The notes below the pieces were generated by a model, which worked only from the letters and a program-made list of their open reading frames with translations, did not search any database and was not told the origin of the DNA. The position numbers and the translations under genes were made by a program. Positions 3,332 through 58,928 of a DNA stretch of 64,000 nt are shown piece after piece. The DNA is taken from positions 613,609-677,608 of the forward strand of contig CAYYWQ010000001.1 in the NCBI GenBank assembly GCA_964474825.1, given 5' to 3'. The stretch is from an uncultured Candidatus Saccharibacteria bacterium. Its GTDB lineage: Bacteria > Patescibacteriota > Doudnabacteria > UBA920. Positions within the stretch are counted from its first letter, which is position 1, and every line of letters starts with the position of its first letter.

Positions 3332-3372
3332 AAAAAATAAAAACCTGCCAATAATATTGGCAGGTTTATTGT
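3332..3372. terminator. bidirectional rho-independent terminator after secY
   Basis: A-run, hairpin CCTGCCAataatatTGGCAGG, T-run. Confidence 0.6.
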
Positions 3373-3382
3373 ATCAGTATTT

Positions 3383-3415
3383 CCTAAAACCTAAAAGCTA
3401 ACACCTAAAACCTAA
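3383..3415 (-). repeat. CCTAAAA/GCTAAC k-mer tract (family F) abutting secY stop
   Basis: cctaaaacctaaaagctaacacctaaaacctaa; on the mRNA strand reads TTAGG repeats giving TAG in all three frames; reverse-complement copy at 41035-41070. Confidence 0.5.
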
Positions 3416-4708: not shown

Positions 4709-4710
4709 TG

Positions 4711-4776
4711 GTTTAGGGAGTAGCTGGTAGCTAGTAGTGGGTAGCTACATGCTACTTCCTACTTACTACAAGCTAA
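4711..4776 (-). repeat. intercistronic GTAG/CTAC inverted k-mer array element (family A, copy 1, variant)
   Basis: gaGTAGctgGTAGctaGTAGtggGTAG...CTACttcCTACttaCTACaagCTA between secY and rplO. Confidence 0.6.
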
Positions 4777-5211
4777 TTATACTACTTTTCCACCCATCTT
4801 CTCAATAACCGCGCGAGCGGACTTTGAAGTCGGCAATTTGATAACCAGTTTCTTTTTTATTTCTCCGCCTAAAATTTTAGCTTTTAAAGTTTCACTGTCT
4901 ACTAAACCTTTGGCTTTTAAAGCGGCCATGTCAACAGTGGCACCATCTTCAAAAACTGAAAGCTTGGTTAAAGATACAACAACATGCTTTTCTTCAAGCG
5001 CCCTAAAGCCACGTAATTTTGGCAACTGGCGAACCAACGGCTGACGACCACCTTCAAAATTCACAGGCATTTTGGTATGTCCGGTTCTGGCTGTTTGTCC
5101 TTTACCACCACGAGTGGAATAAGTGCCGTGTCCGCTACCCAAACCACGACCAATAACCTTGCGGCGATGGGTGGATTTAGGATTCTTTTTAAGTTGATGT
5201 AATTTGATCAT
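4777..5211 (-). CDS. rplO: 50S ribosomal protein L15
   Basis: 144 aa, KVIGRGLGSGHGTYSTRGGKGQ motif. Confidence 0.93.
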   Translation of the reverse strand: MIKLHQLKKNPKSTHRRKVIGRGLGSGHGTYSTRGGKGQTARTGHTKMPVNFEGGRQPLVRQLPKLRGFRALEEKHVVVSLTKLSVFEDGATVDMAALKAKGLVDSETLKAKILGGEIKKKLVIKLPTSKSARAVIEKMGGKVV

Positions 5212-5292
5212 ATTAGTTAGCTAGTAGCATGTAGCGGGTAGTTTGTAGCCATGCAGTTTCCTACAAGCTACTGACTACTTCCTACAAGCTGA
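5212..5292 (-). repeat. family A intercistronic element (copy 2)
   Basis: GTAG-array ... ccatgcagtttc ... CTAC-array; occupies the position where rpmD (L30) would normally lie. Confidence 0.6.
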
Positions 5293-5796
5293 TTACTTTC
5301 TCATTTGCGCTAATTGTTCTTTACTGCGCATTTTAGCAAAAGCAGCAAACACAGCTTTAACATTGTTAACTTTGTTGTTACTGCCCAACATTTTGCTGAC
5401 CACGTTGGTCACGCCTGCCAAATCCATCACACTGCGCACAGCGCCGCCGGCAATAACACCAGTACCTGGCCTGGCCGGTTTAAGCATTAGGCTGGAGGAT
5501 TTATACTTTATGTTTAATCCATGGGGAATAGTACCGTTAACCAAAGGCAAGGTAATCATAGTCTTTTTAGCGGCTGCAACTGCTTTGTTTACGCTCTCAG
5601 AAACGTCCGCGCCTTTCTTAAGGCCCATGCCGACTTTACCTTTGTGGTCACCAATAACTACTAAAGCACGGAAACGCATTCTTTTTCCGCCGGCAACAAC
5701 ACGGGTAACACGTTTAACTTCCACCACTTTTTGGTCGAATTCATTGCGTTCCCTGTCGCCGCCTTCTCTGCCTGATTGTCTGCGTCTTTTTTCCAT
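5293..5796 (-). CDS. rpsE: 30S ribosomal protein S5
   Basis: 167 aa, S5 dsRBD and C-terminal domain motifs. Confidence 0.93.
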   Translation of the reverse strand: MEKRRRQSGREGGDRERNEFDQKVVEVKRVTRVVAGGKRMRFRALVVIGDHKGKVGMGLKKGADVSESVNKAVAAAKKTMITLPLVNGTIPHGLNIKYKSSSLMLKPARPGTGVIAGGAVRSVMDLAGVTNVVSKMLGSNNKVNNVKAVFAAFAKMRSKEQLAQMRK

Positions 5797-5812
5797 AAAA
5801 TAAATATGCTAA

Positions 5813-6166
5813 TTAAAATTTCAAACCACCCTCGCGGGCGCCTTCTGCCAAAGCTTTAACACGGCCATGGTACTTGTAACCACCGCGGTCAAATACTACG
5901 CTGGCAATGTTCTTCTCAGTTGCTTTTTTAGCTAAAAGTTTACCGGTCTCTAGAGCTTTATTAACTTTTTTGTCCTTTGCCTTAATTTCGGCACTGGAGG
6001 CTGAAGCTAAAGTTTTGCCGGCCTGGTCGTCTATTAACTGGGCGTAAATGTGGGCGTTAGCACGGAATACACAAAGACGAGGTCGCTCTGCGCTACCACT
6101 TACCACCGACCGCACGCGGTTATGGCGAATTACTCTCTTGCTTCTTTTGTGCTTGTTGATATCCAT
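5813..6166 (-). CDS. rplR: 50S ribosomal protein L18
   Basis: 117 aa, [18 protein letters not shown]. Confidence 0.93.
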
Positions 6167-6255
6167 AAATTAGTTTACAAGTTTATAAAGTTCTTAAAGT
6201 TTGTAAAGTTACTGCAGTCCACTTTATGAACTTTATAACTTTACGAACTTTCAAC
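6167..6255 (-). repeat. intercistronic AAAGTT/AACTTT inverted k-mer array element (family B, copy 1)
   Basis: gtttataaagttcttaaagtttgtaaagtt ... actttatgaactttataactttacgaactttcaac; near-identical copies at 10666-10762 and 23552-23646. Confidence 0.6.
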
Positions 6256-6810
6256 TTACTTTCCGCCCCCTACTACTTTAACAACTTTACCCGCTTTCCT
6301 TCTAACAACTTCGTCTATATATTTAATACCTTTGCCTTTATATGGTTCCGGTTTCTTTAATTCTCGGATTTCTGCGGCGAATTGTCCAACCTGTTGTTTG
6401 CTGGCTCCGGAAATACTAATAACATTTTTGTCTACAGCTACAGTCAGCTCTTTAGGAATATCTACAATTACAGGGTGAGAAAAACCAAGGCTCATGTTTA
6501 ATTTACCGGGAGCAGTAGCGACTTTAAAACCTACGCCAATAACTTCCAATTTTTTCTCGTAGCCTTTGGTTACGCCGTCTACCATATTTTGAATAAGAGC
6601 GCGGAACAAACCCCACAAAGCGCGCTGGCGCTTGTCTAACTGCTTGGCCACGTCCACAAGAATTTCCTGTTCAGAAACAGTAACAGAAACTTTTGGGTGA
6701 ATTTCAATAGTCAAAGTCCCCTTAGGACCGGTTACGGACAAAGTTAAATCTTTCTTTTCTACTTTTACCCCGCTTGGGATAATAACTGGTTTTTTACCGA
6801 CTCTGGACAT
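6256..6810 (-). CDS. rplF: 50S ribosomal protein L6
   Basis: 184 aa, MSRVGKKPV start. Confidence 0.93.
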   Translation of the reverse strand: MSRVGKKPVIIPSGVKVEKKDLTLSVTGPKGTLTIEIHPKVSVTVSEQEILVDVAKQLDKRQRALWGLFRALIQNMVDGVTKGYEKKLEVIGVGFKVATAPGKLNMSLGFSHPVIVDIPKELTVAVDKNVISISGASKQQVGQFAAEIRELKKPEPYKGKGIKYIDEVVRRKAGKVVKVVGGGK

Positions 6811-6894
6811 AATTTAAGCTTATTTACTAATCAGCTGATCGGCAGATCAGCAACTGATTTGCTGATTCACTGATTAGCTGACTAGCTTGTTAAT
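6811..6894 (-). repeat. intercistronic ATCAG/CTGAT inverted k-mer array element (family C)
   Basis: aatcagctgatcggcagatcagcaa ... ctgatttgctgattcactgattagctgactagc. Confidence 0.55.
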
Positions 6895-7287
6895 TTACCA
6901 AACTTTACAAACAACTTCTCCGCCAACTTTAGTTTTGCGCGCTTGTCTGTCTGTTAATAATCCTTTAGAAGTAGAAATGACTGTTAGTCCCAATCCGCTG
7001 TTAGTGCGGGGGATTTTTTCAGAAGGCAAATAAATCCTTTGTCCCGGCTTACTAACCCGTTCAATTCCGGAAATTACCGGCTGTCCCTGACCGTCATACT
7101 TTAAAGCAATCTGGAGCATCTTGAATTTACCAGGAACTTCAGAAACAGTACCGACAAAGCCTTCCTTAGCTAAAAGAGTAGCAAGGTTATGCTTGAATTT
7201 AGAATAAGGCATCACTGCCGCTTCCTTGTGGGCTGCGGCCGCGTTTCTTATTCTAGTTAACATGTCGGCAATTGGATCTGTATACAT
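6895..7287 (-). CDS. rpsH: 30S ribosomal protein S8
   Basis: 130 aa, MYTDPIADMLTRIRNA. Confidence 0.93.
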   Translation of the reverse strand: MYTDPIADMLTRIRNAAAAHKEAAVMPYSKFKHNLATLLAKEGFVGTVSEVPGKFKMLQIALKYDGQGQPVISGIERVSKPGQRIYLPSEKIPRTNSGLGLTVISTSKGLLTDRQARKTKVGGEVVCKVW

Positions 7288-7319
7288 ATATTGGTTAAAT
7301 ATTTATTCTGATAACTTGC

Positions 7320-7514
7320 TTACCAGGATGCTTTTACAATTCCGGGTATTTCCCCTTTACTTGCTAATTCTCTAAAACAAATTCTGCACATATCAAAGTC
7401 TCTCATATAACCGGCTTTACGACCGCACTTCCAACAGCGCCTGGAAATCCTGGTAGAGAATTTGGCGTGGAACTTATTCTTCTTCGTCTTTGCAATTTGT
7501 GCTTGTGTGGCCAT
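7320..7514 (-). CDS. rpsN: 30S ribosomal protein S14 type Z (zinc-binding)
   Basis: 64 aa, [20 protein letters not shown] CxxC-CxxC. Confidence 0.92.
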
Positions 7515-7540
7515 AATAATTAATTAGCTAAAGCTTTGGG

Positions 7541-8086
7541 CTATTTGTCGTGTTTCTTAAATGGAAAGCCCATCTGTTTTAATAATTCATGAGTGACTTC
7601 GTCTTTACCAGAGTTTGTAACAATTGAAATTTCTAAACCAAAAACATTTTCTAAAGCTCCGGCGGAAATTTCTGGAAAAACCAAATGTTCTTTCATGCCC
7701 AAGTGGTAGTTACCGCGGCCGTCAAACTTGTCGGTTACTCCCTGAAAATCTCTTACCCTAGGCAAAGCAACATTTATAAGTTTGTCTAAAAAGCTATACA
7801 TTCTAAAACCTCTTAAGGTAGCAACAACACCGACAATCTGGTTTTCTCTGACTTTAAAACCGGAAATAGATTTACGGGCAATAGTCTTAACAGGAGCTTG
7901 GCCGGTTATTTTGGCAAGATCGGCGGCAACAGCGTCTACTTTTTTCTTGTCTTCCTTAATTTTGCCTACGCCGGAGCTTACCACAATTTTTAAAATCTTC
8001 GGCACTTCCATGACATTATTAAAAGCAAACTTGGCTTTTAAGGCCGGGACTATCTTTGTATTATATTGTTCCTGTAATCGTTCCAT
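7541..8086 (-). CDS. rplE: 50S ribosomal protein L5
   Basis: 181 aa. Confidence 0.93.
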   Translation of the reverse strand: MERLQEQYNTKIVPALKAKFAFNNVMEVPKILKIVVSSGVGKIKEDKKKVDAVAADLAKITGQAPVKTIARKSISGFKVRENQIVGVVATLRGFRMYSFLDKLINVALPRVRDFQGVTDKFDGRGNYHLGMKEHLVFPEISAGALENVFGLEISIVTNSGKDEVTHELLKQMGFPFKKHDK

Positions 8087-8160
8087 ATGTTTTAGTTAGT
8101 AGCTGGTAGTTAGTAGCCATGCAGTTTCCTACATACTACTAGCTACTTCCTACTGGCTAA
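8087..8160 (-). repeat. family A intercistronic element (copy 3)
   Basis: ttagtagctggtagttagtagccatgcagtttcctacatactactagctacttcctactggctaatt. Confidence 0.6.
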
Positions 8161-8478
8161 TTAAACTGCTTTACCACTGCTCTTACCCATTCGTTGTTTA
8201 GATCCGTTTTCTAAAAATTTATACTGAACTCTTGTGGTCTCACCGGAATTGGGGTCTACAAGCATAACTTTACCAGCTGGGAACGGCGCGGAGAAGGTAA
8301 TTTTTTTACCTGGCTCGCCGGCCTTGCGGCTGCGTTCAAACTTTGTATGCATGTTCACCTGTTCCACTACGACTTTCCCTGTGGAAGGAAAAACCTGGAG
8401 GATTTTGCCGGTCTTGCCTTTGTCCTTACCGGACAAAACCTTAACCGTATCGCCTTTTTTAATTCTGAGCTTGTTCAT
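8161..8478 (-). CDS. rplX: 50S ribosomal protein L24
   Basis: 105 aa, KIKKGDTVKVLSGKDKGKTGKIL. Confidence 0.93.
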   Translation of the reverse strand: MNKLRIKKGDTVKVLSGKDKGKTGKILQVFPSTGKVVVEQVNMHTKFERSRKAGEPGKKITFSAPFPAGKVMLVDPNSGETTRVQYKFLENGSKQRMGKSSGKAV

Positions 8479-8482
8479 AAAT

Positions 8483-8875
8483 TTAAATTACTTCCGGAGC
8501 TAAAGATAAAATTTTCTTAAAGCCGTCTTCGTACTTTCCAAGGGCCTTTTCGCGGATTTCTCTTGGGATGGGACCAAAAATACGGGTACCACGCGGTTCG
8601 CCTTTTTCTTTGTCTACTAATACTCCGGCGTTTTCATCAAAGCGAATGTAGCTGCCGTCTTTGCGGCGGATTTCTTTTCTTAAACGGACAATAACCGCGT
8701 AAACTTTGTCGCCCTTTTTAATTCCGGAATTGGCAGCAACTTGGCGAACTGAACCTGCTACAATGTCTCCCACAGTGGCAAAGCGCCTGCTGTTCTTGCC
8801 GTTAACACTAAAAACATTAACGACTTTCGCGCCGGTGTTGTCTGCTATTTTAATGTAGGATCGTACTTGTAACAT
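8483..8875 (-). CDS. rplN: 50S ribosomal protein L14
   Basis: 130 aa, [11 protein letters not shown] ... [10 protein letters not shown]. Confidence 0.93.
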
Positions 8876-8954
8876 ATTTAGAGGGTAGCTGGTAGTTAGT
8901 AGGTGGTAGCCATGCAGTTTCCTACAAGCTACTGACTACTTCCTACTGGCTAAT
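8876..8954 (-). repeat. family A intercistronic element (copy 4)
   Basis: On the mRNA strand TAG at offsets 12, 19, 26 and 33, covering all three frames, followed by a GTAG/CTAC hairpin. Confidence 0.6.
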
Positions 8955-9197
8955 TTATGCTTTACTTATTACTTTAAACTTTTTCTCTTTACTCATTGGC
9001 CTAATGGATTCAATTATCACGCGGTCACCTACTTTAAATTCATTGTTCTCGCTATGAGCCTTGAATTTTTTAGAAACGGTATAAGACTTATGGTATTTGG
9101 GATGACGTTTTTTGCTGTCAACTTTAACAACTACAGTCTTCTGCATTTTGTCCGAAACCACAATCCCTATTAGTTGTTGCTTTTTTGATTCTGTCAT
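8955..9197 (-). CDS. rpsQ: 30S ribosomal protein S17
   Basis: 80 aa. Confidence 0.9.
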   Translation of the reverse strand: MTESKKQQLIGIVVSDKMQKTVVVKVDSKKRHPKYHKSYTVSKKFKAHSENNEFKVGDRVIIESIRPMSKEKKFKVISKA

Positions 9198-9267
9198 ATT
9201 CTAGTGATTAGTGCTTAGCGAATAGAGAATAGTGTTTTATCCTTTTCTCTTATCTCTTTTCTCTATC
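9198..9267 (-). repeat. intercistronic TAGTGAATAG-type inverted k-mer array element (family D, copy 1)
   Basis: gtgattagtgcttagcgaatagagaatag ... ctcttatctcttttctctatc. Confidence 0.5.
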
Positions 9268-9456
9268 TTAGCTCTTCTTGTTATGTAAATAAAACATTAT
9301 TCTGGCAATATCTTTCTTAATAGAAGCCAATTCCCTGGTATTCTTAACCTGATTAAGACGCATTTTAACGGACAAGTCATGAGCCTTTTCTTTTAATTCA
9401 GCCAAAAGGTTCTTTACTTCCGCCTCTGGTTTAGTTGTAAGTTCTTTATACTTCAT
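9268..9456 (-). CDS. rpmC: 50S ribosomal protein L29
   Basis: 62 aa. Confidence 0.88.
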   Translation of the reverse strand: MKYKELTTKPEAEVKNLLAELKEKAHDLSVKMRLNQVKNTRELASIKKDIARIMFYLHNKKS

Positions 9457-9529
9457 AAAATTAGCGATTAGTGAATAGCGATTAGTGAATAGTTTCTATT
9501 GCCTGTTCGCTATTCGCTAATTACTCAAC
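9457..9529 (-). repeat. family D intercistronic element (copy 2)
   Basis: gattagtgaatagcgattagtgaatag ... ctattcgctaattac. Confidence 0.55.
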
Positions 9530-9946
9530 TTACCCTTGCTTCTCTTTCATTAAAAATCTGCTTTTTACCGGTAATTTATAGCTGGCCAACCTCATTGCTT
9601 CCTGAGCCTGTTCTTTAGTTACTCCGTCCATTTCAAATAAAATCTTGCCTTTTTTCACAACCGAAACAAAATGGTCAACCGCACCTTTACCGCCACCCAT
9701 TGGGCTCTCGTTACCGTGCAAGGTTACAGGCTTGTCCGCAAACACGCGGATCCAAATTTTACCGCCGCGTTGTACGTAACGGGTCATGGCTCTGCGGGCT
9801 GCCTCAATTTGGCGAGCTGTTACCCAGGAGCTTTCCAGAGCCTTTAAGGCAAACTGTCCGAATGCAATTTCCGCTCCGGCTGTTGCTTGTCCTTTAGTAT
9901 GACCGCGATGGTGCTTGCGGTGTTTAAGTTTCTTTGGAATAAACAT
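9530..9946 (-). CDS. rplP: 50S ribosomal protein L16
   Basis: 138 aa. Confidence 0.93.
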
Positions 9947-10005
9947 ATAGTAGTAAATTAGTTATTCAGAGAATTAGCGAGTTAGCTATCTAATTCTCTA
10001 ACTCT
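9947..10005 (-). repeat. family D-like intercistronic element (copy 3)
   Basis: tcagagaattagcgagttagctatctaattctctaactctc. Confidence 0.45.
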
Positions 10006-10665
10006 CTATTTCTCTGCAGTGACTTTCTTTGCCTCGAAAATATCTCCCTTATAAATCCAAACTTTAATTCCAACTGTGCCGTAAGTGGTAAATGCTGTGC
10101 TGCGGGCAAAGTCTATATTAGCTCTTAAAGTATGCAAAGGAATTTTGCCACTGGAGAGATGTTCTGTTCTGGCAATATCAGCACCATTTAGACGTCCGCC
10201 AATTGCTACTTTAGCTCCCTTGGCTCCGGCTTGAATAATCTGCTCCAAGGACTGCTTCATTAAGCGGCGGAAAGCAACACGCTTTTCCAACTGTTCGGCA
10301 ATGCCGTTGGCAATAACCTGGGCCTGTAGATTAATGTCGCGGACTTCTTCTATGTTTACTTTAAATTCTTTTTTTATACCAACTTTGGATTTAATCTTCT
10401 TTTTCAGCTCTTCAATTCCAGCGCCACCTTTGCCAATAATTAATCCGGGTTTCGTTGTTTTAATAATTACATTCAGTCCGCCGTCTCCGGTGCGTTCAAT
10501 ATCAATACGGACCAAGCCGGCCTTCTTTAACTGTTTTTCCAAATATTCCCGAATCTTCACGTCTTCCTTAAGTTGTCCTTGAAAATTACTCTTAGAAAAC
10601 CACTTGGATTTCCAGGTATCTGTAATTTTTATTCGGAATGATGTTGGATTAATCTTATGACCCAT
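10006..10665 (-). CDS. rpsC: 30S ribosomal protein S3
   Basis: 219 aa, KH domain. Confidence 0.93.
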   Translation of the reverse strand: MGHKINPTSFRIKITDTWKSKWFSKSNFQGQLKEDVKIREYLEKQLKKAGLVRIDIERTGDGGLNVIIKTTKPGLIIGKGGAGIEELKKKIKSKVGIKKEFKVNIEEVRDINLQAQVIANGIAEQLEKRVAFRRLMKQSLEQIIQAGAKGAKVAIGGRLNGADIARTEHLSSGKIPLHTLRANIDFARSTAFTTYGTVGIKVWIYKGDIFEAKKVTAEK

Positions 10666-10762
10666 AAAATATTAGTTACTCAAGTTTATAAAGTTCTTAA
10701 AGTTTGTAAAGTTGCTGCAGTCCACTTTATGAACTTTATAACTTTATAAACTTTCAACTCGT
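10666..10762 (-). repeat. family B intercistronic element (copy 2)
   Basis: near-identical to 6167-6255. Confidence 0.6.
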
Positions 10763-11335
10763 TTATTCTCCGCTCTTTCTATTAAATAGTCTTCGCTTGT
10801 TAGCCGCTTTGTTCATCTTAACCTGTTCTTCGCTCTTAAACAACTGTGGCTTTTTCGGAGTGTCGGAAACCGGCTTTATATTAGTCGCCTCTTTCTGGTC
10901 TACACTGATTTCCGGCTTCTCTTCCTTCTTGAATAAATTAAATTTGGACTTAGTCTTTCCGGCTTTTTTGCGTTCTTCCAAAACTACGTTAACGTGGGAA
11001 AGCTTTCTGCGGATAACAAACGCGCTGCCGCGGGCTCTTGGGAAATAGCGTTTTAAAACCTTGCCCATGTCTGCGGTAATGGTTTTAATATAGAGGCGAT
11101 TCTCGTCCATTGAAAAATTATTCTTGGCATTTGCCACGGCGCTGCGGAGAAGTTTAGCAACAATTGGCGCGCCTTTTTTGTTCAAATGCTGTAATTGAAT
11201 CATGGCATCGTTAACATTCATGCCTTTGAGCAAATTGGTAACCAAACGAATCTTTCTTGGAGCAAGATGAAGATCCCGGGCGCTGGCTCGTACTGTAACG
11301 GCTGATGGAGTTTTTTCGGCTAATGCTTTTTTCAT
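10763..11335 (-). CDS. rplV: 50S ribosomal protein L22 with ~75-aa basic C-terminal extension
   Basis: 190 aa; L22 core then K/E-rich tail. Confidence 0.9.
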   Translation of the reverse strand: MKKALAEKTPSAVTVRASARDLHLAPRKIRLVTNLLKGMNVNDAMIQLQHLNKKGAPIVAKLLRSAVANAKNNFSMDENRLYIKTITADMGKVLKRYFPRARGSAFVIRRKLSHVNVVLEERKKAGKTKSKFNLFKKEEKPEISVDQKEATNIKPVSDTPKKPQLFKSEEQVKMNKAANKRRLFNRKSGE

Positions 11336-11418
11336 ATTCTGGTTATGTATGAGGTAGCTTGTAGTTAGTAGCTGGTAGCCCTGCAGTTTCCTACAAGCTA
11401 CTAACTACTTCCTACTTG
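11336..11418 (-). repeat. family A intercistronic element (copy 5)
   Basis: gtagcttgtagttagtagctggtagccctgcagtttcctacaagctactaactacttcctac. Confidence 0.6.
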
Positions 11419-11751
11419 CTATTTCTTTGGTTCATCCTTTGCCGCGCTAAGCTTTGCCTTTTCGGCTTCAGCCTTGGCTGCTTCCTGTTCCTTAGCCATC
11501 TTACCACCATGTCTTATAAATTTTCGGGTTGGAGAAAATTCACCTAGCTTGTGGCCTACCATGTTTTCTGTTACGAAAACCGGTGTGTGGGCCCTGCCGT
11601 TATGCACCAAAAAAGTGAACCCAACAAATTCAGGGGCAATAGTGCAGCTGCGAGACCAGGTTTTAATTTGGTCCTTACCAGCTTTACCATTGAGCACTTT
11701 TTTAAGTACTCTCGGGTCTACGTATGGTCCTTTTTTTAGTGATCGTGACAT
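11419..11751 (-). CDS. rpsS: 30S ribosomal protein S19 (A/K/E-rich C-terminal tail)
   Basis: 110 aa. Confidence 0.92.
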
Positions 11752-11831
11752 ATAGTTAGGTGGTAGCTGGTAGTTAGTAGCGAGTAGCCATGCAGTTTCC
11801 TACAAGCTACTGACTACTTCCTACTGACTAA
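11752..11831 (-). repeat. family A intercistronic element (copy 6)
   Basis: ggtagctggtagttagtagcgagtagccatgcagtttcctacaagctactgactacttcctactgactaatt. Confidence 0.6.
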
Positions 11832-12668
11832 TTATTTACTTCTGCGCTTTACAATGGATTTGTTAGAATACTTCTTCTTTAGTCTGGTCTTAACACCCAA
11901 AGCGTGTCTGCCCCAGGGGGTTTTAGGATATTTCATACCAATTGGGTTATGTCCTTCACCACCACCGTGAGGGTGGTCTACCGGGTTCATAACTTTACCG
12001 CGGACACTTGGTCTCCAGCCCATATGGCGGCTGCGTCCGGCTTTACCGATTCTAACATTCATCCAGTCAGCGTTGGCCAACTGGCCAATGGTTGCGGTAG
12101 CGGTATCTTTAACGCGGCGGATTTCTCCGCTCGGCATTTTAAGTAAAGCGTAGTTTGCTTCTATGGTCTGAAGTATTGCATAGGCGCCGGCGCTTCTGGC
12201 AATTTTTCCGCCGTGTCCCGGAATTAACTCAATGTCGTGAATAAAGCTACCAACAGGAATATTTTTTATAGCCAAACGATTACCGGGTAAAATTTCGGCA
12301 GTGGGACCAAACATAATAGTGTCGCCAACTTTTAAACCCTGCGGTGTTAAAATAAAACGCTTGCTGCCGTCTTTGTAAGAAATTAAAGAAATAAAAGCAG
12401 TGCGGGTTGGGTCGTACTCAATTGTTTTAACAACCGCCGGAATACCCTGTTTGTCGGAACGGGAGAAATCTACCAAACGGGTTTTACGAATGGCGCCGCC
12501 GCCCTGGTGACGAACAGTAATTTTACCGCTGTTGTTGCGGCCGGCTGGCTTGGCTTTGCTAAAAATTAAACCTTTCGGGGTTTTATGCTTTTTGCGCAAT
12601 ACCGAATAATCCGTAACCGATTGGATACGTCTTCCTGCGCTGGTTGGTTTGTAAAGTTTTACGGCCAT
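11832..12668 (-). CDS. rplB: 50S ribosomal protein L2
   Basis: 278 aa. Confidence 0.95.
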
Positions 12669-12672
12669 ATTA

Positions 12673-13038
12673 TTAGACTACGTCTGTTAAACCTTCAATC
12701 TTGTCGCCTTTTTTTAAAGTAACAATTGCTTTTTTAAAATCTGACATTTTTCCGCTGGTTCTGCCGTAGTTCCTGTGTTTGCCTTCCATGCGGATAATGT
12801 TTACCTGAGTAACTTTAACTTTATAAGCATTTTCAACGGCCTTCTTAACTTCAATTTTATTGGCCGAATTCTTTACTTTAAAAACATACTTATTTAAAGA
12901 AACCAAATGGCCGGCCTTTTCGGAAATCCGGGGCTGAAGCAGTACAGCAGGAACTTTTACGCTAGACGAAGTAGCCACAGTTGCGCCTGCAACTGTTTCT
13001 TTCTTTTCGTCATCGGATTTTTTGCTAAAAATGGCCAT
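12673..13038 (-). CDS. rplW: 50S ribosomal protein L23 (N-terminal extension)
   Basis: 121 aa. Confidence 0.88.
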
Positions 13039-13114
13039 GGGATTAGGGGTTAGCTGGTAGTGAGTAGCGGGTAGGCCTGCAGTTTCCTACAAGCTACTGG
13101 CTACTTCCTACAAG
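13039..13114 (-). repeat. family A intercistronic element (copy 7)
   Basis: gttagctggtagtgagtagcgggtaggcctgcagtttcctacaagctactggctacttcctacaagc. Confidence 0.6.
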
Positions 13115-13750
13115 CTATTTACTCTTTAAATAAGTTTTTTCTATAACAGCCAAAGCATCTTTTAAAACTACAATACTGTCTGCTTTTAAAACTTCTACTA
13201 AATTCAGACTGTTGGCAAAAAGTGTTGTTATTCCTTGGAGGTTCCTGGTTGCCCTGACTAACTTGTCGTCTTTCTTTGGCAAAAGCAACATTTGCTTTTT
13301 ACCGAGATCTTTAAAATTGCCAATGATCTTTACAAATTCTTTAGTCTTAGCGCCTGGAAGTTCAATTTGGTCAACAACAATAAATTTCTGTTCTTTAACT
13401 TTATCGGACAAAGACATAAACAAAGCTTTGGTCTTGGCCTTCTTGTTGATCTTTAGTTCCCAGTTCTGGTTGCTGCGGGGACCGAAAGTCACACCACCGT
13501 GGCGCCAAATTGGGGACCTGGTACTACCTGCACGGGCGCGGCCTGTACCTTTTTGCTTCCATGGTTTCTTACCGCCACCGCTTACTTCGCCGCGGGTTTT
13601 GGTGTGGGAAGTCCCTTGCCTGCTGTTGGACTGTGAAATTCTAACAGCTTCGGCCAAAAGATGCTGGGATGGCTTAACATCAAAAATCTTTGAGTTTAAC
13701 TCAATGTCGCCAATTACTTCCGCTTGCTGATTGTAAAGAGATGTCTTCAT
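13115..13750 (-). CDS. rplD: 50S ribosomal protein L4
   Basis: 211 aa. Confidence 0.93.
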   Translation of the reverse strand: MKTSLYNQQAEVIGDIELNSKIFDVKPSQHLLAEAVRISQSNSRQGTSHTKTRGEVSGGGKKPWKQKGTGRARAGSTRSPIWRHGGVTFGPRSNQNWELKINKKAKTKALFMSLSDKVKEQKFIVVDQIELPGAKTKEFVKIIGNFKDLGKKQMLLLPKKDDKLVRATRNLQGITTLFANSLNLVEVLKADSIVVLKDALAVIEKTYLKSK

Positions 13751-13825
13751 GATTGAGTGAGCAGTGGGCAGTGTTTAGTGGATAGTGTGATTACTAATCA
13801 CCACCCACTATTCACTAATCACTTT
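13751..13825 (-). repeat. intercistronic AGTG/CACT inverted k-mer array element (family E)
   Basis: agtgagcagtgggcagtgtttagtggatagtgtgatt ... aatcaccacccactattcactaatcac. Confidence 0.55.
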
Positions 13826-14491
13826 TTACTTCTTTTTCTTCTCTTCCTTAACTTCCACAATTCTTACAACTGGCTTTACTTTACCTGTAGAAATAACTTT
13901 TACTAAACCGTTCCTGTGTCCCGGGACTGCGCCTTTAAGCATTAACAAATTCTTAGCTGGGTCAACTTCCACGACCTGTAAATTCTTTACGGTAACTTGC
14001 TGTACGCCCATGTGGCCGGCCATTCTCATACCTTTTCTAACGTGCTGAGGAAAACGTTGACCAATAGAACCGACAGAGCGGGGCTTGTTGTGACCGTGGG
14101 ACATTGGAAAACCGTGGAAACCATGGCGTTTCATGGCGCCGGCAAAGCCGCGGCCTTTAGAAACTCCAATTACGTTTACCATTTCTCCAACCTGGAAACC
14201 GGACAAATCCAATTTCTTGCCGAGCTCATATTCTTTAACATCTGTTACGCGGAATTCGGTTAAAACGGAAAAATTACCTAGGTCCTTAAAATGCCCTTTT
14301 AAAGATTTAGATAATTTTTTCTTTTTGCCAATGCCAATTTGCACAGCGTTATACTTGTCTTTTCCTTCGCCGGATTTAACATGAGTTACAACCATTTGGC
14401 CGCCCTTAATAACAGTAACCGGCACGACTTCGCCGCTCTTTTCGTCAAAATACTGAGTCATATTCAGTTTATGTCCGACTAAAAAGTTCAT
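13826..14491 (-). CDS. rplC: 50S ribosomal protein L3
   Basis: 221 aa. Confidence 0.93.
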   Translation of the reverse strand: MNFLVGHKLNMTQYFDEKSGEVVPVTVIKGGQMVVTHVKSGEGKDKYNAVQIGIGKKKKLSKSLKGHFKDLGNFSVLTEFRVTDVKEYELGKKLDLSGFQVGEMVNVIGVSKGRGFAGAMKRHGFHGFPMSHGHNKPRSVGSIGQRFPQHVRKGMRMAGHMGVQQVTVKNLQVVEVDPAKNLLMLKGAVPGHRNGLVKVISTGKVKPVVRIVEVKEEKKKK

Positions 14492-14572
14492 AGTTTAGGT
14501 TGTAGCTGGTAGTAGGTAGCAGGTAGCCATGCAGTTTCCTACAAGCTACTGACTACTTCCTACTGGCTAAAT
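14492..14572 (-). repeat. family A intercistronic element (copy 8) within the 217-nt rpsJ-rplC spacer
   Basis: ttgtagctggtagtaggtagcaggtagccatgcagtttcctacaagctactgactacttcctactggctaaatt; followed by GGGCacgatttGCCC hairpin. Confidence 0.6.
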
Positions 14573-14708
14573 TAAAACGGGCACGATTTGCCCGCATCAA
14601 TAAACGAAAGAATGTCTTTCTTTTACTTATGAGAGTAAATCGTTTTCTAATTTGCTAAGCTTTGTTGCGCTATCGCGAACTAGAACTAATTCACAAAATA
14701 TTTTTTTA

Positions 14709-15032
14709 CTAACTCATTTTAATCTCTACGTCTACACCGGCCGGTAAATTCAAATTTGTAAGGGAATCTATGGTTTTTGGTGTGGCGTCTAGAATATCAA
14801 TCAACCTTTTATGCACGCGCATTTCAAACTGTTCGCGGCTGTCTTTATGAACAAAAGTACTGCGCAAAACCGTATACTTGGTTTTGTCAGTCGGTAGCGG
14901 AATGGGCCCGGAAATAGTGGCTCCGGTCCTTTTGGCAGTATCCACAATTTGTTTAGCGCTTTGATCAATTAACTTATGATCGTAAGCTCTAATTTTAATG
15001 CGGATTTTCGGCTTTGCAGAGTCCTTGTCCAT
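14709..15032 (-). CDS. rpsJ: 30S ribosomal protein S10
   Basis: 107 aa. Confidence 0.93.
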
Positions 15033-15122
15033 TTGTTAAAGATGCCTTAAATGCGTGCCTTATTTGGGCGATTAAATGATATTAAATCAGGCCTTTTATA
15101 TAGCCTTTTACGTACTTGCAAT

Positions 15123-15151
15123 AGTTTATACGACTTATTCAAAATTGTCAA
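15123..15151 (-). promoter_or_regulatory. candidate sigma70-type promoter of the S10 operon (TTGACA-17-TAAACT)
   Basis: minus strand TTGACA at 15151-15146, 17-nt spacer, TAAACT at 15128-15123, about 90 nt upstream of the rpsJ ATG. Confidence 0.4.
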
Positions 15152-15235
15152 GGATTTCATAGTATATTGACAAATTATATCAAAAATGTCATAGTATAAG
15201 GTAAATTTTAAGGAGGCTTTAAACTAGGAAGCATT

Positions 15236-15286
15236 GGTCATAGCAATAAGATTCTATAAATCTTATGGTTTTTTATTGCTATGACC
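15236..15286 (+). promoter_or_regulatory. perfect 14-bp inverted repeat (nested hairpin) engulfing the start codon of the lipoprotein gene
   Basis: GGTCATAGCAATAA ... TTATTGCTATGACC with inner AAGATtctataaATCTT; the ATG at 15281 lies in the right arm; strong AAGGAGG 65 nt upstream. Confidence 0.5.
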
Positions 15287-15832
15287 AACCCAAAACTGCT
15301 TGTAACAGTGATAGTTTTAGCCACCCTGATTCTCGCTTCGTGCGGGACCCAGGCTCCGGCCAACAACAAGCTCATCGCTCCAACCGAGTCCAAGCCTGTT
15401 AAATCTCAACCCACGACCACTACACCGACCCCCGCCCATACCAACATCGAGACTGACACTGCCAGCAAGCTTACGCTGGCCCAAATCGAGCCGGAGTTAG
15501 AAAGGCTGGATACACGGTTGGATGAAGAGTATGACGCCCTTAAGGGTCATCTCAAAAAGGGCAACGAGGCCGACGTCCGGAACGAACTCAACTCCGTGTT
15601 GCGAACCGAACAGAAAAGGCGGAAAGTCATCGCCCGTTACACGGAGCTGACCAAAAAGAACCATTTCCTCACATACCCCATTCTCTGGAACGATCGTCTG
15701 GATGAAGCTGGGGAGCTCACTAAGGTAGCCGTCTCGAAGTTCAGTGTTCCCGAGCTCGAGAAGTGGAAAAAGATGGCCGGTACGATACCCTCTAACCCGG
15801 ACGGGGTTGAGGTTTGGTTCACAAACCGCTAA
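15281..15832 (+). CDS. putative lipoprotein (GC-rich, foreign codon usage)
   Basis: 183 aa; signal peptide with lipobox LASCG; Pro/Thr-rich linker; codons CTC/GAG/ATC/GCC in contrast to the host AAA/TTT/ATT bias. Confidence 0.6.
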   Translation: MTNPKLLVTVIVLATLILASCGTQAPANNKLIAPTESKPVKSQPTTTTPTPAHTNIETDTASKLTLAQIEPELERLDTRLDEEYDALKGHLKKGNEADVRNELNSVLRTEQKRRKVIARYTELTKKNHFLTYPILWNDRLDEAGELTKVAVSKFSVPELEKWKKMAGTIPSNPDGVEVWFTNR

Positions 15833-15886
15833 CCTCCAGCCCTCGACAGGGCTGCGCCGGCAATATCACCGCTTCCTAGTTACTCC

Positions 15887-15928
15887 TGGAGACGAACAGA
15901 CCCCGCTTGCTGTTCGTCCCCTTTTTCC
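15887..15928 (+). terminator. rho-independent terminator after the lipoprotein gene
   Basis: GACGAACAGaccccgcttgCTGTTCGTC then CCCTTTTTC. Confidence 0.55.
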
Positions 15929-16096
15929 CGCTCACGAAAATTCGCGAGTGGAAAATTGTTAATTTATAGTTAAATCTTTCCTGGAAATGTGGGTAAAATA
16001 TTTTTTACCTATTTTCCCCTGGGAGATTTGTTTAGTCTTCGTGACCAATAAGTATCTGGTCACAAAAGCAGGGGTTTTCAATAGGGAGAATTAGAA

Positions 16097-16393
16097 TTGC
16101 CAGAACCACGTTGGCTGCTGGAAGCAGCCTTAGAAGGACTCTCTGTCGAAAGACAGAGACTCGAGCAACAGATCGCGGCTATCCGAGCGGGGGGAATCGC
16201 ACCCCCAACGGGGCCTCGGACGCATCGCCGCACAAGAAAAAAGCGGCACATGAGCGCAACAGGCAGAGCAGTAGTATCTGCCGCTCAGGCAGTGCGGTGG
16301 GCCTCTACGCCTGCAGAAAAAAAGGCGGCGAAGGCAAAACTTGCTCAGGTCCAGCAAGTTCACCAGATGAGGAAGAAAAAGGCCAGCCGTTAG
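16097..16393 (+). CDS. small basic coiled-coil protein (TTG start), GC-rich
   Basis: 98 aa, N-terminal helical LEAALEGLSVERQRLEQQIAAIRAG then Arg/Lys-rich tail; GGGAGA Shine-Dalgarno 8 nt upstream; 7-bp palindrome GTGACCA-n9-TGGTCAC at 16041-16063 upstream; other frames overlap, so the frame choice is tentative. Confidence 0.4.
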   Translation: MPEPRWLLEAALEGLSVERQRLEQQIAAIRAGGIAPPTGPRTHRRTRKKRHMSATGRAVVSAAQAVRWASTPAEKKAAKAKLAQVQQVHQMRKKKASR

Positions 16394-16586: not shown

Positions 16587-16618
16587 TTCCTAAAAGCTAA
16601 TAGCAAGCAGCTAAAAGC

Positions 16619-17806
16619 TTACTTGATAATTTTTGTGACTACGCCAGCGCCTACAGTGTGGCCGCCTTCGCGGATGGCGAATTTGCCTTTTTCTTCTAGG
16701 GCTACTGGGGTGATTAATTTGATGACTAATTTAACAGTGTCACCAGGCATAACCATTTCCTGTCCTTCTGGAAGAGTTACGTCACCAGTCACGTCGGTAG
16801 TACGAATGTAGAACTGGGGTTTGTAACCTTTAAAGAACGGGGTGTGGCGTCCGCCTTCTTCTTTGGTCAAAACATAAATTTCAGATTCAAATTCCGTGTG
16901 AGGAGTAATAGAACCCGGTTTGCACAAAACTTGTCCGCGTTCTACTTCTTCTTTTTTAGTACCACGGAGCAAAATTCCGGCGTTGTCCCCTGCCATACCG
17001 CTGTCCAACTGTTTGTTGAACATTTCAATACCGGTTACAACTGTTTTGCTTGTTGGGCGAATACCAACGATTTCAATTTCTTCGTTGATCTTAATTTGCC
17101 CGCGTTCAATTCTACCAGTGACCACGGTACCGCGGCCTTCAATAGAAAAGATATCTTCAATAGGCATTAAGAATGGCTTTTCAACTTCGCGCTTTGGGTC
17201 AGGGATAAAAGAATCCAAAGTTTCCATTAATTTCAAAATGGAAGCTTCACCCATTTCGGAAGTGTCGCCTTCCAAAGCTTTTAAGGCACTGCCACGAATA
17301 ATTGGAGTGTCTTTGCCTGGGAATTCATATTTGGTCAAAAGGTCGCGGATTTCTTCTTCTACTAAGTCCAAAAGTTCAGCGTCCTGGACCATGTCGCACT
17401 TGTTCATATAAACGACAATGTAAGGAACGCCTACCTGCTTAGCTAAAAGAATGTGTTCGCGAGTCTGGGGCATTGGGCCGTCAGCGGCGGATACAACCAA
17501 GATAGCTCCGTCCATTTGGGCGGCACCGGTAATCATGTTCTTAATATAGTCGGCGTGTCCTGGACAGTCCACGTGCGCGTAGTGGCGCTTAGCTGTTTCG
17601 TATTCTACGTGCGCGGTGTTAATTGTAATACCACGGGCTTTTTCTTCTGGGGCGTTGTCAATGCTATCATAAGCACGGGCCTTGGCGCCACCGGTCTTGC
17701 TGAGTACCGTAGTAATAGCAGCAGTCAAAGTGGTTTTACCGTGGTCAACGTGACCAATGGTTCCTACATTGACGTGCGTCTTGCTACGGTCAAATTTGTC
17801 TGCCAT
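16619..17806 (-). CDS. tuf: elongation factor Tu
   Basis: 395 aa, [18 protein letters not shown]. Confidence 0.97.
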
Positions 17807-22402: not shown

Positions 22403-22541
22403 AGATTAATTTAAAGATTTAAAAAATAAATGATTTAAAGATTTTTGTGTCATCCTGAACTTGTTTCAAAATTTGATTCATGCTATTCTGGGCTGTCCAT
22501 TATCCGAGAAGTTTTCGGAAATAGGACTGAGAGGAGGAAAT

Positions 22542-22870: not shown

Positions 22871-22978
22871 TAAAAGTTCCTTTTACTTCTACTAAAATAC
22901 TAATCCAGACTAAATTACTAAAACTTTCAAATACAGATTTCGTAATTTCGTTTGTTTTCGTATTTTGTAGAGACTCTT

Positions 22979-23551: not shown

Positions 23552-23646
23552 AGGTTTTCAGTTTATAAAGTTTGTAAAGTTATAAGGTTCATAAAGTTTT
23601 AGGCAATTCCGACTTTATAAACTTTAAGAACTTTACGAACTTTCAA
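23552..23646 (-). repeat. family B intercistronic element (copy 3) between rpsL and rpsG
   Basis: agtttataaagtttgtaaagttataaggttcataaagtttt ... actttataaactttaagaactttacgaactttcaac. Confidence 0.6.
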
Positions 23647-26746: not shown

Positions 26747-26851
26747 CCCCTTTCAAAACTTCTACTAAATATTAAAATAACTAAAGATACGAAAGCTAAA
26801 AAAATTAGGTTTAGTAGTTTAGTTTTCTTTAGTATTTAGTAGAAAAACACT
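26747..26851 (-). repeat. intercistronic TTTAGTAG/CTACTAAA inverted k-mer array element (family G) between purH and the DUF1761 gene
   Basis: cttctactaaatatt ... ttagtagtttagttttctttagtatttagtag. Confidence 0.5.
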
Positions 26852-57685: not shown

Positions 57686-57713
57686 CCGCAGACTACTATC
57701 TACAATCTACTAA

Positions 57714-58928
57714 CTACTTTGCTGTGTAGTCTTTATAATCTTTAACCATGGTATCAAAATAGTCATACTCAATAGCCTTGCGGATTTTTTCCATAAGATT
57801 TAAATAGAAGCGTAGGTTGTGCATGGTAGCCAAACGGATTGCCAGCTGCTCGCCTGTGGCAAATAAGTGCCGCAAATAGGCACGGCTATGGTTTAGACAC
57901 AAATAACAATTACAAGTACTGTCCACGGTAGTAAAATCTTCTTTGTATTTTTCTAAGGTAATATTCATTGTAGAATAACCCTCGCCACCGGTTTCGGATT
58001 TTGCACTTACATACAGCCTGCCATGCCGGGCTTCCCTTGTTGGAATTACGCAGTCAAAAGTGTCACACCCTCTGCTTACTGCCTGGACAATGTCAAAAGG
58101 CGTACCAACGCCAAGTAAATGTTTTGGCGAAGTTTCCGGCAAAAATGGGACCGATGCTTCTATGGCTAACATCATTTCCTTATGAGGTTCCCCTACTGCT
58201 ACGCCCCCAATAGCAAAGGCTTCGAACCCAAGCTCTACCATATCTTTAGCGGACTGCGCGCGAAGGTCCGGGAAACTGGCACCCTGAACAATGCCCCACA
58301 ATTTTTGCCCGGAATTAATTGGGTCGCCGTGGGACATAATATTTAAAAATTCTTTTTGCGCGCGCTCGGCCCAGCGTTTGGTAAGTTCAATAGATGCCTT
58401 AGACCTGGCGTGTTCAAATGGATAACCCGGAAAATCATCGAGGATGAGAGCAACGTCGCTCCCCAAGTTAGCCTGGATTTGGACGCTTTTTTCCGGACTT
58501 AAAATTTCCTGTTTGCCATCTAAATCAAACTGGAACAATACTCCCACTTCCATAACCTTGCGCATTTTTGCCAAACTATAAACTTGAAAGCCTCCTGAGT
58601 CCGTAAAAATTGGACCTTTCCAATTCATGAACTCATGAAGGCCTCCGGCCTTGTAAATAAGTCCGTCTCCCGGGCGTTGCCACAAATGGTAAGTGTTGGC
58701 GAGTATCATGTCCGACCCCCAAAACTTAAGCTCCTCACTAGTAACACTTTTTACTGTGCCTCTTGTGCCAATAGGCAAAAACGCCGGGGTCTTAACGTCC
58801 CCGTGCGCTGTGTGGATAATTCCATTCCGCGCTTTACTGCCGGAATCTTTTTTCAGAATGTCAAAATAAGCCATGCTAAGCTTTCGCGGCCTTGCTTTTA
58901 GATTTTTCGTCTTCTGCACCAAAGCCAC
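57714..58928 (-). CDS. tgt: queuine tRNA-ribosyltransferase
   Basis: 404 aa in the track (GTG start); the internal ATG (MAYFDILKK) about 18 codons in would abut the upstream ORF stop at 58876 and fits the Tgt N-terminus better. Confidence 0.88.
   Translation of the reverse strand: MALVQKTKNLKARPRKLSMAYFDILKKDSGSKARNGIIHTAHGDVKTPAFLPIGTRGTVKSVTSEELKFWGSDMILANTYHLWQRPGDGLIYKAGGLHEFMNWKGPIFTDSGGFQVYSLAKMRKVMEVGVLFQFDLDGKQEILSPEKSVQIQANLGSDVALILDDFPGYPFEHARSKASIELTKRWAERAQKEFLNIMSHGDPINSGQKLWGIVQGASFPDLRAQSAKDMVELGFEAFAIGGVAVGEPHKEMMLAIEASVPFLPETSPKHLLGVGTPFDIVQAVSRGCDTFDCVIPTREARHGRLYVSAKSETGGEGYSTMNITLEKYKEDFTTVDSTCNCYLCLNHSRAYLRHLFATGEQLAIRLATMHNLRFYLNLMEKIRKAIEYDYFDTMVKDYKDYTAK

Follow-up and report, generated by a model that had tools for sequence, protein, structure and literature searches.

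Mirrored tandem-repeat palindromes occupy most intergenic spacers of the S10-SecY ribosomal protein cluster in an uncultured member of the Doudnabacteria

The ribosomal protein gene cluster from S10 to SecY of an uncultured Doudnabacteria bacterium (GenBank contig CAYYWQ010000001.1, positions 613,609 to 677,608; this stretch of 64,000 nucleotides is referred to as the window) is interspersed with hairpins that are built from short tandem repeats. On the mRNA strand, each long intergenic spacer contains a tandem array followed by an array of the reverse-complement unit, and together these elements contribute approximately 1.2 kb of repeat-built hairpins to three quarters of the S10-SecY junctions. 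On balance we favor the interpretation that the elements are lineage-specific, self-propagating mirrored tandem-repeat palindromes (“mirror arrays”), which would resemble repetitive extragenic palindromic (REP) sequences and heptamer repeats, and that they are not a conserved regulatory device of the ribosomal operon. Genomes of the Candidate Phyla Radiation (CPR, Patescibacteria) are small and dense, and few bacterial operons are as compact and conserved as the S10-spc cluster. Hairpins in three quarters of the S10-spc junctions are unexpected in this setting, as are dozens of unrelated repeat units that converge on one architecture across the phylum and recur in two further CPR phyla.

According to Pfam, the genes of the cluster are arranged on the minus strand in the order S10, L3, L4, L23, L2, S19, L22, S3, L16, L29, S17, L14, L24, L5, S14, S8, L6, L18, S5, L15, and SecY. 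L30, which is usually missing in CPR bacteria, was not found in the cluster. Fifteen of the 20 junctions are long (59–217 nt) and five are short (4, 4, 16, 26, and 32 nt). Since strict periodicity thresholds had missed arrays of the type GTAGNNN, the threshold was recalibrated against shuffled sequences to a false-positive rate of 1%. All 15 long spacers then scored as a hairpin combined with a tandem array, and no array or hairpin was present at the five short junctions. The repeat period was 7 in 11 of the long spacers, 8 in two, and 9 in two, and Tandem Repeats Finder (TRF) independently reported arrays with periods of 7, 8, 9, and 14 in these spacers. Most units are heptamers with a conserved core of 4–5 nt and 2–3 free positions. 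The spacer between S12 and S7 in the str operon shares the mirrored design.

At least seven different units, each mirrored by its complement, occur in the window, and most families are represented by a single copy. The exceptions are family A (GTAG/CTAC), whose eight copies (seven canonical copies and a variant at 4709–4776) all lie within 10 kb, and family B (AAAGTT/AACTTT), which has three copies including the one in the S12-S7 spacer. All copies of both families are intergenic and thus form multi-copy groups of short imperfect palindromes. Families C, D, E, and G were each found in the window as well, so that this part of the family list in the initial annotation, which had been made from the sequence letters and open reading frames (ORFs) of the same stretch, was reproduced together with its copy numbers for A and B. 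All copies of family A have identical GTAG and CTAC cores, the 3-nt positions between the cores vary freely, and the loop is identical among the copies except for the variant, which lacks the GAAA loop. The motif ACTGCA(G) is common to the apical loops of family A (GGAAACTGCATGG; e.g., 8118–8130) and family B (GTGGACTGCAGTAAC; 6206–6220 and 10708–10722), which are otherwise unrelated; this could reflect recombination between the families or a common generating step.

When folded as mRNA, each spacer forms one long stem-loop of 14–33 bp with a free energy of −14 to −33 kcal/mol. Compared with dinucleotide-preserving shuffles, 15 of the 18 elements tested reached z-scores between −3.0 and −5.9, and the elements at 9198–9267, 26747–26851, and 22880–22978 folded more weakly. 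Each spacer was folded individually, because the elements could not be made out against the noise of a sliding 80-nt minimum free energy scan across the window. The stems consist of 4–7-bp helices formed by the conserved cores, which are separated by internal loops (1×1 to 3×3) formed by the variable unit positions. The base of the stem lies 0–6 nt 3′ of the upstream stop codon and 5–25 nt before the next start codon, leaving an open A/U-rich leader. These data support the claim of the initial annotation that several unrelated families of mirrored k-mer arrays follow one design, and the pattern exceeds what is found in shuffled sequence. The two-armed elements, all on the minus strand, are as follows.

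4709..4776, minus strand: L15-SecY spacer; family A variant, GTAG ×4 / CTAC ×4, no GAAA loop, 20-bp stem-loop; −25.6 kcal/mol, z −3.7; TRF period 7.
5212..5292, minus strand: S5-L15 spacer; family A hairpin with GAAA apical tetraloop; −30.5 kcal/mol, z −3.8.
6167..6255, minus strand: L6-L18 spacer; family B, AAAGTT / AACTTT, period 9, 31-bp stem-loop; −22.4 kcal/mol, z −4.1.
6811..6894, minus strand: S8-L6 spacer; family C, AATCAG / CTGATT, period 8; −31.2 kcal/mol, z −5.9.
8087..8160, minus strand: L24-L5 spacer; family A; as RNA −28.2 kcal/mol, z −4.2; as single-stranded DNA −10.1 kcal/mol, z −1.5.
8876..8954, minus strand: S17-L14 spacer; family A; −29.6 kcal/mol, z −4.2; identical copy in the independent assembly L084.
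9198..9267, minus strand: L29-S17 spacer; GAGAAAAG/AATAG-type arrays, weak hairpin; −10.5 kcal/mol, z −1.7; family also in spacers of the related locus L005.
9457..9529, minus strand: L16-L29 spacer; family D, TAGCGAA/TAGTGAA; −23.7 kcal/mol, z −5.3.
9947..10005, minus strand: S3-L16 spacer; AGAGAATTAG-type, period 8, 14-bp hairpin; −14.5 kcal/mol, z −3.0; family also in the related loci L001 and L002.
10666..10762, minus strand: L22-S3 spacer; family B; −26.8 kcal/mol, z −4.9.
11336..11418, minus strand: S19-L22 spacer; family A; −29.1 kcal/mol, z −4.1.
11752..11831, minus strand: L2-S19 spacer; family A; −32.6 kcal/mol, z −4.4.
13039..13114, minus strand: L4-L23 spacer; family A; −29.4 kcal/mol, z −4.4.
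13751..13825, minus strand: L3-L4 spacer; family E, TAGTG/AGTGG then CACT, period 7; −30.2 kcal/mol, z −5.2.
14492..14576, minus strand: 3′ part of the S10-L3 spacer, directly upstream of L3; family A; −29.3 kcal/mol, z −3.0.
22880..22978, minus strand: just 3′ of the S7 stop codon; TACGAAA-type periodic hairpin, weak; −19.2 kcal/mol, z −2.3.
23552..23646, minus strand: S12-S7 spacer, str operon; family B; −23.3 kcal/mol, z −5.1.
26747..26851, minus strand: purH-DUF1761 spacer; CTAAA/CTAC then TTTAGTAG hairpin, pyrimidine-rich arm first; −22.6 kcal/mol, z −2.3.

The evolutionary history of the elements was assessed in 14 further Doudnabacteria loci (L001–L014, with L2 identities ranging from 86% to 62%, by which the source of the window is assigned to Candidatus Doudnabacteria), in which all cluster genes were located and the junctions tabulated, and in 66 non-Doudnabacteria control loci (L015 onward; Firmicutes and others). 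Spacers of 60–270 nt were found at most junctions in the window and its closest relatives L001–L006, whereas the spacers of L007–L014 mostly measured 1–30 nt and contained few isolated hairpin insertions. The restriction of the long spacers to the window and L001–L006 indicates that the operon was ancestrally compact and that the hairpins are gains in one Doudnabacteria subclade, and the short spacers of the other relatives indicate that the operon works without them. With one exception in another CPR phylum, periodic hairpins were essentially absent from the 66 control loci, in line with the earlier remark that the arrangement is not known from operons of the E. coli and B. subtilis type. The expectation that orthologous spacers of related genomes would also contain the arrays did not hold for L007–L014, most spacers of which are too short, and families differ between genomes even at the same junction. 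For example, the L3-L4 junction contains AGTG units in the window, TACGAA in L003, GTAG in L004 and L006, and CACAGAT in L007. Each genome has its own dominant family, and clustering of 74 hairpins resulted in 46 sequence families. Family B was found in three genomes (those of the window, L001, and L004), but at differing junctions; only the L22-S3 junction is shared, between the window and L001, and these two copies are probably orthologous.

The internal structure of the arms points to growth in place. In L001 and L013, a variant is common to all units of one arm and absent from the other, showing that homogenization within an arm outpaces the matching of the two arms. In the L16-L29 element, the 3′ arm contains a perfect 14-mer duplication (×2.2 at 9462–9492; 100% matches in TRF). 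Period 7 was found in 41 of 61 array-scoring spacers, and periods of 8, 9, 10, and 14 also occurred. This dominance agrees with the excess of heptamers in prokaryotes, where no other long simple repeats are as common and where their origin has been ascribed to polymerase slippage (Mrazek 2007, as cited in PMC4679880). The arrays would accordingly grow by DNA-level slippage within the arms, and mirroring as well as copying between arms and nearby spacers may proceed by template switching or gene conversion, presumably with no dedicated transposase involved. The copies that persist would be those that leave translation intact. Such a translation filter is supported by the self-folding of the elements, the open A/U-rich leader of 5–25 nt, and the G-poor and start-codon-poor arm next to the start codon (see below). 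Any effect on the polycistronic mRNA would most likely be passive, with the stem-loops acting as barriers to 3′-to-5′ exonucleases such as polynucleotide phosphorylase, which is encoded in the window, and as structural insulators between cistrons.

Alternatively, the elements could be non-autonomous REP sequences, REPINs, or miniature inverted-repeat transposable elements (MITEs), which are mobilized by a hairpin-recognizing HUH tyrosine transposase encoded elsewhere (a REP-associated tyrosine transposase, RAYT, or an IS200/IS605-like enzyme) and insert into the single-stranded DNA of highly transcribed operons. GTAG, the core of the main family, is also the conserved tetranucleotide of enterobacterial REPs. 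As with REPs, the elements are short imperfect palindromes confined to extragenic, intercistronic space; they form multi-copy families with several groups per genome, and the junctions at which one family is found differ between genomes. By definition, a REPIN is a hairpin-forming doublet of two inverted REPs, each a palindrome, with a spacer between them, and REPs have been credited with mRNA stabilization (PMC3337134 and references there). The arms observed here are instead tandem arrays of non-palindromic 7–9-nt units and resemble neither a palindromic REP nor an inverted doublet. With at least seven families in 10 kb, mostly in single copy, the number of families per kb is far higher than for REPs, and the concentration in ribosomal operons and the affiliation with a CPR lineage also differ. 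No RAYT, Y1_Tnp, or other transposase domain was detected among the approximately 75 ORFs of the window, which also lacked insertion sequences, and the alignment of family A showed no direct flanking (target-site) duplication, although the arms could count as terminal inverted repeats. Considering also that family A forms a poor hairpin as single-stranded DNA and that the arm-specific tandem duplications point to growth in place, we regard transposase-driven mobilization as unlikely. Correia elements of Neisseria (NEMIS), enterobacterial repetitive intergenic consensus (ERIC) sequences, and MITE-like elements are likewise bounded by inverted repeats, intergenic, co-transcribed, and hairpin-forming. 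They differ in their size of 100–150 bp and in their defined terminal inverted repeats and target duplications; the lack of an internal tandem-array architecture and of an evident target duplication are further points of difference.

Several observations weigh against self-propagating palindromes as the explanation. Firstly, the elements are not evenly spread, as had been assumed when copies outside the ribosomal cluster were taken to show a genome-wide distribution. Within the window, a hairpin with an array was found at 16 of 21 ribosomal junctions and at none of 39 other co-directional junctions (Fisher’s exact test; p = 1.4e-10). Such an enrichment is not expected of a merely tolerated element, unless its spread is local or linked to transcription. 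Secondly, 58 of 73 hairpins begin with the purine-rich arm, as do 30 of the 40 families with a clear bias. Thirdly, family A folds strongly as RNA (−28 kcal/mol, z −4.2) and only marginally as single-stranded DNA (−10 kcal/mol, z −1.5), and only on the mRNA strand does its apical loop form a GAAA tetraloop. These features favor a relevance at the RNA level, and, coming from one family, they amount to effectively one independent observation. Fourthly, the cores of family A do not vary, although the 3-nt spacers between them appear to have reached saturation, indicating that the cores or the pairing between them are under purifying selection. Fifthly, mirrored-array hairpins with units such as CGCAGTT heptads and AGTACGAAAGAC also occur in ribosomal spacers of two other CPR phyla, at 10850–10943 and 17503–17586 in L030 (Buchananbacteria) and at 11050–11187 in L040 (Peribacteria). 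Judging from these loci the phenomenon may extend beyond the Doudnabacteria, which hints at a shared selective setting. Finally, the slippage and template switching that the preferred explanation invokes are a putative mechanism.

Most of these points are also compatible with the main rival explanation, a selected punctuation of cistrons in highly expressed operons that lack Shine-Dalgarno motifs. In this scenario, ribosomes that read through a stop codon or shift frame would be caught by the stop-rich 5′ arm. The stem-loop would serve as a processing site for RNase III or RNase E or would block exonucleases, and the base of the stem would join the stop codon and the next start codon for re-initiation. 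This explanation is kept alive by the ribosomal enrichment, by the lack of variation in the cores, and by family A, which has a GNRA loop on the sense strand and is stable specifically as RNA, and it also gains from the related elements in other CPR phyla and from the uniform design across unrelated families with its constant placement relative to the stop and start codons. In addition, Shine-Dalgarno motifs precede only 1 of 23 ribosomal protein genes in the window and 0–3 of approximately 20 in most relatives, as the initial annotation had proposed for this genome. We nevertheless consider selected punctuation doubtful, as most junctions of L007–L014 lack the elements, neither position nor sequence is conserved, and families are quickly replaced. 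The closeness of the stem base to the stop codon is trivial, because any insertion into a gap of only 1–10 nt would produce it, and the same applies to the start codon. Comparable single hairpins between cistrons, just 3′ of a stop codon, are the early RNase III sites of phage T7 and the hairpins of Rhodobacter puf and E. coli malEFG. Those are conserved and gene-specific with demonstrated roles in processing or stabilization, whereas the elements described here are repetitive, periodic, and quickly replaced. An RNase III site of the T7 type comprises about two helical turns of double-stranded RNA with at most one internal loop; helices of 4–7 bp that are broken by 3×3 loops would be poor classical substrates.

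The stop tract that had been proposed as a common property of the spacers was present in the window but not specific to the coding strand. Within 40 nt of the upstream stop codon, stop codons occurred in all three frames in 12 of 14 window spacers, compared with 2.4 ± 1.4 in shuffled sequences, which is in agreement with selected punctuation. However, the antisense strand also closes all frames in 10 of the 14 spacers, since the palindrome is symmetric, and the excess was weaker in the two sets of relatives (17 of 44 spacers, with 9.8 expected, and 6 of 16, with 2.9 expected). Three-frame stops arise automatically from any stop-containing unit with a period not divisible by 3, and some copies of family B, which has a period of 9, close two frames only. 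In the copy at 8876–8954, the 7-nt spacing of the TAG codons was correctly described, but their offsets in the spacer are 3, 10, 17, 24, and 31 and not 12 to 33.

The polarity of the arms may have its origin in the leaders. The 35 nt upstream of start codons are poor in G and contain fewer ATG, GTG, and TTG triplets than expected (4 versus 17.6 in the window, 38 versus 58 in L001–L006, and 11 versus 23 in L007–L014). The mean number of start-like NTG codons per 35 nt was 0.72 with a hairpin and 0.70 without, and upstream regions without a hairpin were also G-poor, but less so. A constraint that keeps the 35-nt leader G-poor and start-codon-poor, and that applies generally to hairpin-less genes too, can thus explain the arm polarity. 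The purine-rich 5′ arm with its many stop codons would then largely mirror this constraint, and so would the three-frame stop tract that results from it. A bias in insertion orientation was considered for the purine-first arrangement and dropped, because a palindrome reads alike on both strands and the bias is one of palindrome type.

The tests of covariation, arm matching, and strand bias gave no sign of selection on the RNA structure. As the cores of family A are invariant, no covariation is possible in this family, and chimeric hairpins with swapped 3′ arms did not differ in stability from native hairpins (−30.3 versus −29.8 kcal/mol; permutation p = 0.74), indicating no co-evolution of the arms. 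For family B, RNAalifold with copies from three genomes yielded a covariation term of +0.41, with compensated changes at three pair positions and several uncompensated breaks; no covariation signal was evident. Among 74 hairpins, 32 were more stable on the sense and 35 on the antisense strand (Wilcoxon test; p = 0.71), so that no sense-strand bias was apparent. Likewise, G-U pairs showed no net strand asymmetry: the L2-S19 element of L013 leans toward the sense strand and one family in L002 and L003 toward the antisense strand. The predicted accessibility of start sites was 0.53 with and 0.55 without a hairpin (p = 0.26), and by this prediction the hairpins look neutral for initiation. The initial annotation had suggested from the recurrence of one design in different k-mers that a function was selected and that no single mobile element had spread. 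This suggestion is not upheld, because the copies within families are plainly copies of one another, families turn over, and neither covariation nor a sense-strand advantage was observed.

Outside the S10-SecY cluster, four copies had been reported, two of which (23552–23646 and 26747–26851) are indeed two-armed. The copy at 26747–26851 in the purH-DUF1761 spacer is the only two-armed copy seen outside translation genes; it is visibly periodic and slightly under the threshold. The other two, at 3383–3415 and 41035–41070, are one-armed arrays and not hairpins. The one-armed arrays are listed below; the listed strand is minus throughout, and motifs are given on the mRNA strand or, for fusA, on the plus strand where indicated.

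3383..3415, minus strand: array at the SecY stop codon; TTTTAGG on the mRNA strand ×4.7, followed by a terminator-like hairpin at 3341–3367.
16590..16619, minus strand: array at the tuf stop codon; CTTTTAG on the mRNA strand ×4.3, directly 3′ of the stop.
22409..22444, minus strand: array at the fusA start codon; ATTTAAAG on the plus strand, 8-mer ×4.5, directly upstream of the start.
41035..41070, minus strand: array at the serine hydroxymethyltransferase start codon; CTAAAAG/CTAAC, directly upstream of the start.
57692..57718, minus strand: array at the tgt stop codon; GTAG-type heptamers, directly 3′ of the stop.

Arrays of this kind, located directly after stop codons or directly before start codons, would fit a further explanation, according to which the array itself is functional as a multivalent site for a single-stranded RNA-binding protein with a footprint of about 7 nt (cold-shock-domain, S1, or KH) and the hairpin is secondary. 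The dominant heptad period and the homogenization of units within one arm independently of the other would agree with this scenario. An analogous role has been proposed for the TAACTGA heptamer repeats of Beggiatoaceae, Cyanobacteria, and Bacteroidetes, together with heptamer binding by CspB (PMC4679880). Those repeats end a few nucleotides before starts without Shine-Dalgarno motifs, occur inside ribosomal operons, and in forward orientation give stop codons in three frames (PMC4679880), and heptamer arrays near start codons are also known from Nostoc (10.1101/2022.06.06.494920). The arrays described here resemble TAACTGA and short tandemly repeated repetitive (STRR)-type arrays in being intergenic tandem heptamers near starts that lack Shine-Dalgarno motifs. 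However, TAACTGA-type repeats comprise one heptamer per genome and are direct repeats with a single inverted set among 170 (PMC4679880), whereas many different units are present here, each completed to a hairpin by its reverse-complement array, and most junctions of a single operon are filled with them. One sequence-specific protein could not read 46 families with unrelated cores, periods of 8, 9, 10, and 14 also occur, and no candidate protein was tied to the elements. A protein-binding function of the arrays is therefore the least probable of the explanations considered here.

A broader and rather speculative possibility, to which we give little weight, combines selection with self-renewal. 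CPR bacteria without Shine-Dalgarno motifs may have evolved a sequence-independent “cistron boundary module”, a heptad RNA stem-loop whose 3′ arm would provide the G-poor, start-free leader, whose 5′ arm would stop off-frame ribosomes, and whose base would juxtapose stop and start codons for re-initiation. Its internal loops would evade RNase III, and slippage together with template switching would regenerate it from any k-mer, with no transposase involved. If this were true, the module would constitute a self-renewing class of functional repeats.

Targeted literature searches on intergenic or palindromic repeats of Doudnabacteria, CPR bacteria, or Patescibacteria found no description of such elements. 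REPs and REPINs, TAACTGA repeats, and the Nostoc arrays come closest among described elements, but none of them unites a multitude of units with mirrored arrays and the near-saturation of a single operon. The mirror arrays offer a natural system for the birth and replacement of tandem repeats and palindromes without an obvious transposase. They also reveal, in an operon without Shine-Dalgarno motifs, that leaders are constrained to be poor in G and devoid of start codons, and they are clear targets for metatranscriptomic studies of mRNA processing in uncultured bacteria.

Other types of elements were considered and rejected. Intrinsic terminators consist of a G+C-rich stem with a U-tract behind it; none of the array hairpins was called by a scan for them, which did report minus-strand terminators near the operon at 3341–3367 (after SecY) and 14577–14595 (inside the S10-L3 spacer). 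TIGR arrays, which are associated with Tas proteins, consist of long contiguous runs of units of about 36 nt with two spacers and adjoin a tas gene encoding a Nop-domain protein (PMC12045711); the elements in the window are single hairpins between genes with units of 7–9 nt, and no Nop-domain protein is encoded there. CRISPR-like arrays were likewise rejected. Small ORFs in the loops were dismissed, as the loop ATG is absent in two of seven family A copies and is out of frame with the downstream gene in the L24-L5 spacer, the one copy checked. Promoter-like sites were not enriched (27 versus 20 ± 5). In a search against Rfam, only tRNA scored at the gathering threshold, and E-values of up to 1 added chance matches to miRNA precursor and snoRNA models. 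A search for DnaA boxes together with GC skew did not place the origin.

A contig from an independent short-read assembly of the same organism, the Logan contig L084 (SRR14271372), which was retrieved by an exact lookup of the L14 protein, corresponds to positions 7778–8934 of the window and is 100% identical over 1157 nt, without strain variation. The contig ends inside a family A hairpin, which suggests that the repeats fragment assemblies of such genomes and may explain this break. A search for the family A core in JGI metagenome contigs yielded three stretches, all of them chance matches without the element, and no further copies were obtained. In L002 (e.g., 14842–15053 and 15627–15829) and L005 (9483–9586, 11566–11702, and 12598–12733), the same ribosomal junctions contain an unlike, GC-rich multi-hairpin repeat of 100–250 nt, which reads TTCTCCCCAAAGC..GGGGAGATGTC..AGAGAGGTT.. 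and whose 3′ end TAAGGAATAAGCTAT is the source of most Shine-Dalgarno-like motifs in these loci (7 of 20 genes in L002).

The spacer between S10 and L3 is long in every Doudnabacteria locus (107–355 nt). In the window (14577–14708, minus strand), L001, L006, and L007, it contains a structured leader that ends in a GC-rich hairpin with a T-run (14595–14577 in the window). This structure may serve L3 as a leader or attenuator, in which case S10 would belong to the upstream (tuf) transcription unit. The 1.6-kb gap between S10 and tuf (15033–16618) contains ORFs on the opposite strand without Pfam matches, strongly structured intergenic parts (z about −6), and several terminator-like hairpins, and could be an inserted cassette or encode non-coding RNAs. 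In the 576-nt gap between S7 and fusA (22403–22978), the periodic hairpin and the ATTTAAAG ×4.5 array at the fusA start are accompanied by a perfect GC-rich hairpin (22824–22861) and a plus-strand ORF with a weak zinc-ribbon match. Related GCAGAT arrays (CGCAGATACGCAGAT.AGAAACA.G) at 20240–20278 and 26245–26317 (minus strand) lie 3′ of the stop codons of fusA and of a DUF3048 gene (25201–26244), each followed by a palindrome or terminator-like hairpin. A conserved GC-rich element of about 48 nt (GTCATCCCGACCGA..GAGTGCATCCGA..GAGCGGAGGGACCCCTTA) without an Rfam match flanks the last ABC-transporter ATPase gene at 34808–34860 and 35610–35662 (plus strand) and is also present at 5004–5056 in L002. 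The leucyl-tRNA synthetase (43272–46199, minus strand; 975 amino acids) contains an alpha/beta hydrolase-like insert at residues ~263–361 (Pfam Abhydrolase_1 and Abhydrolase_6).

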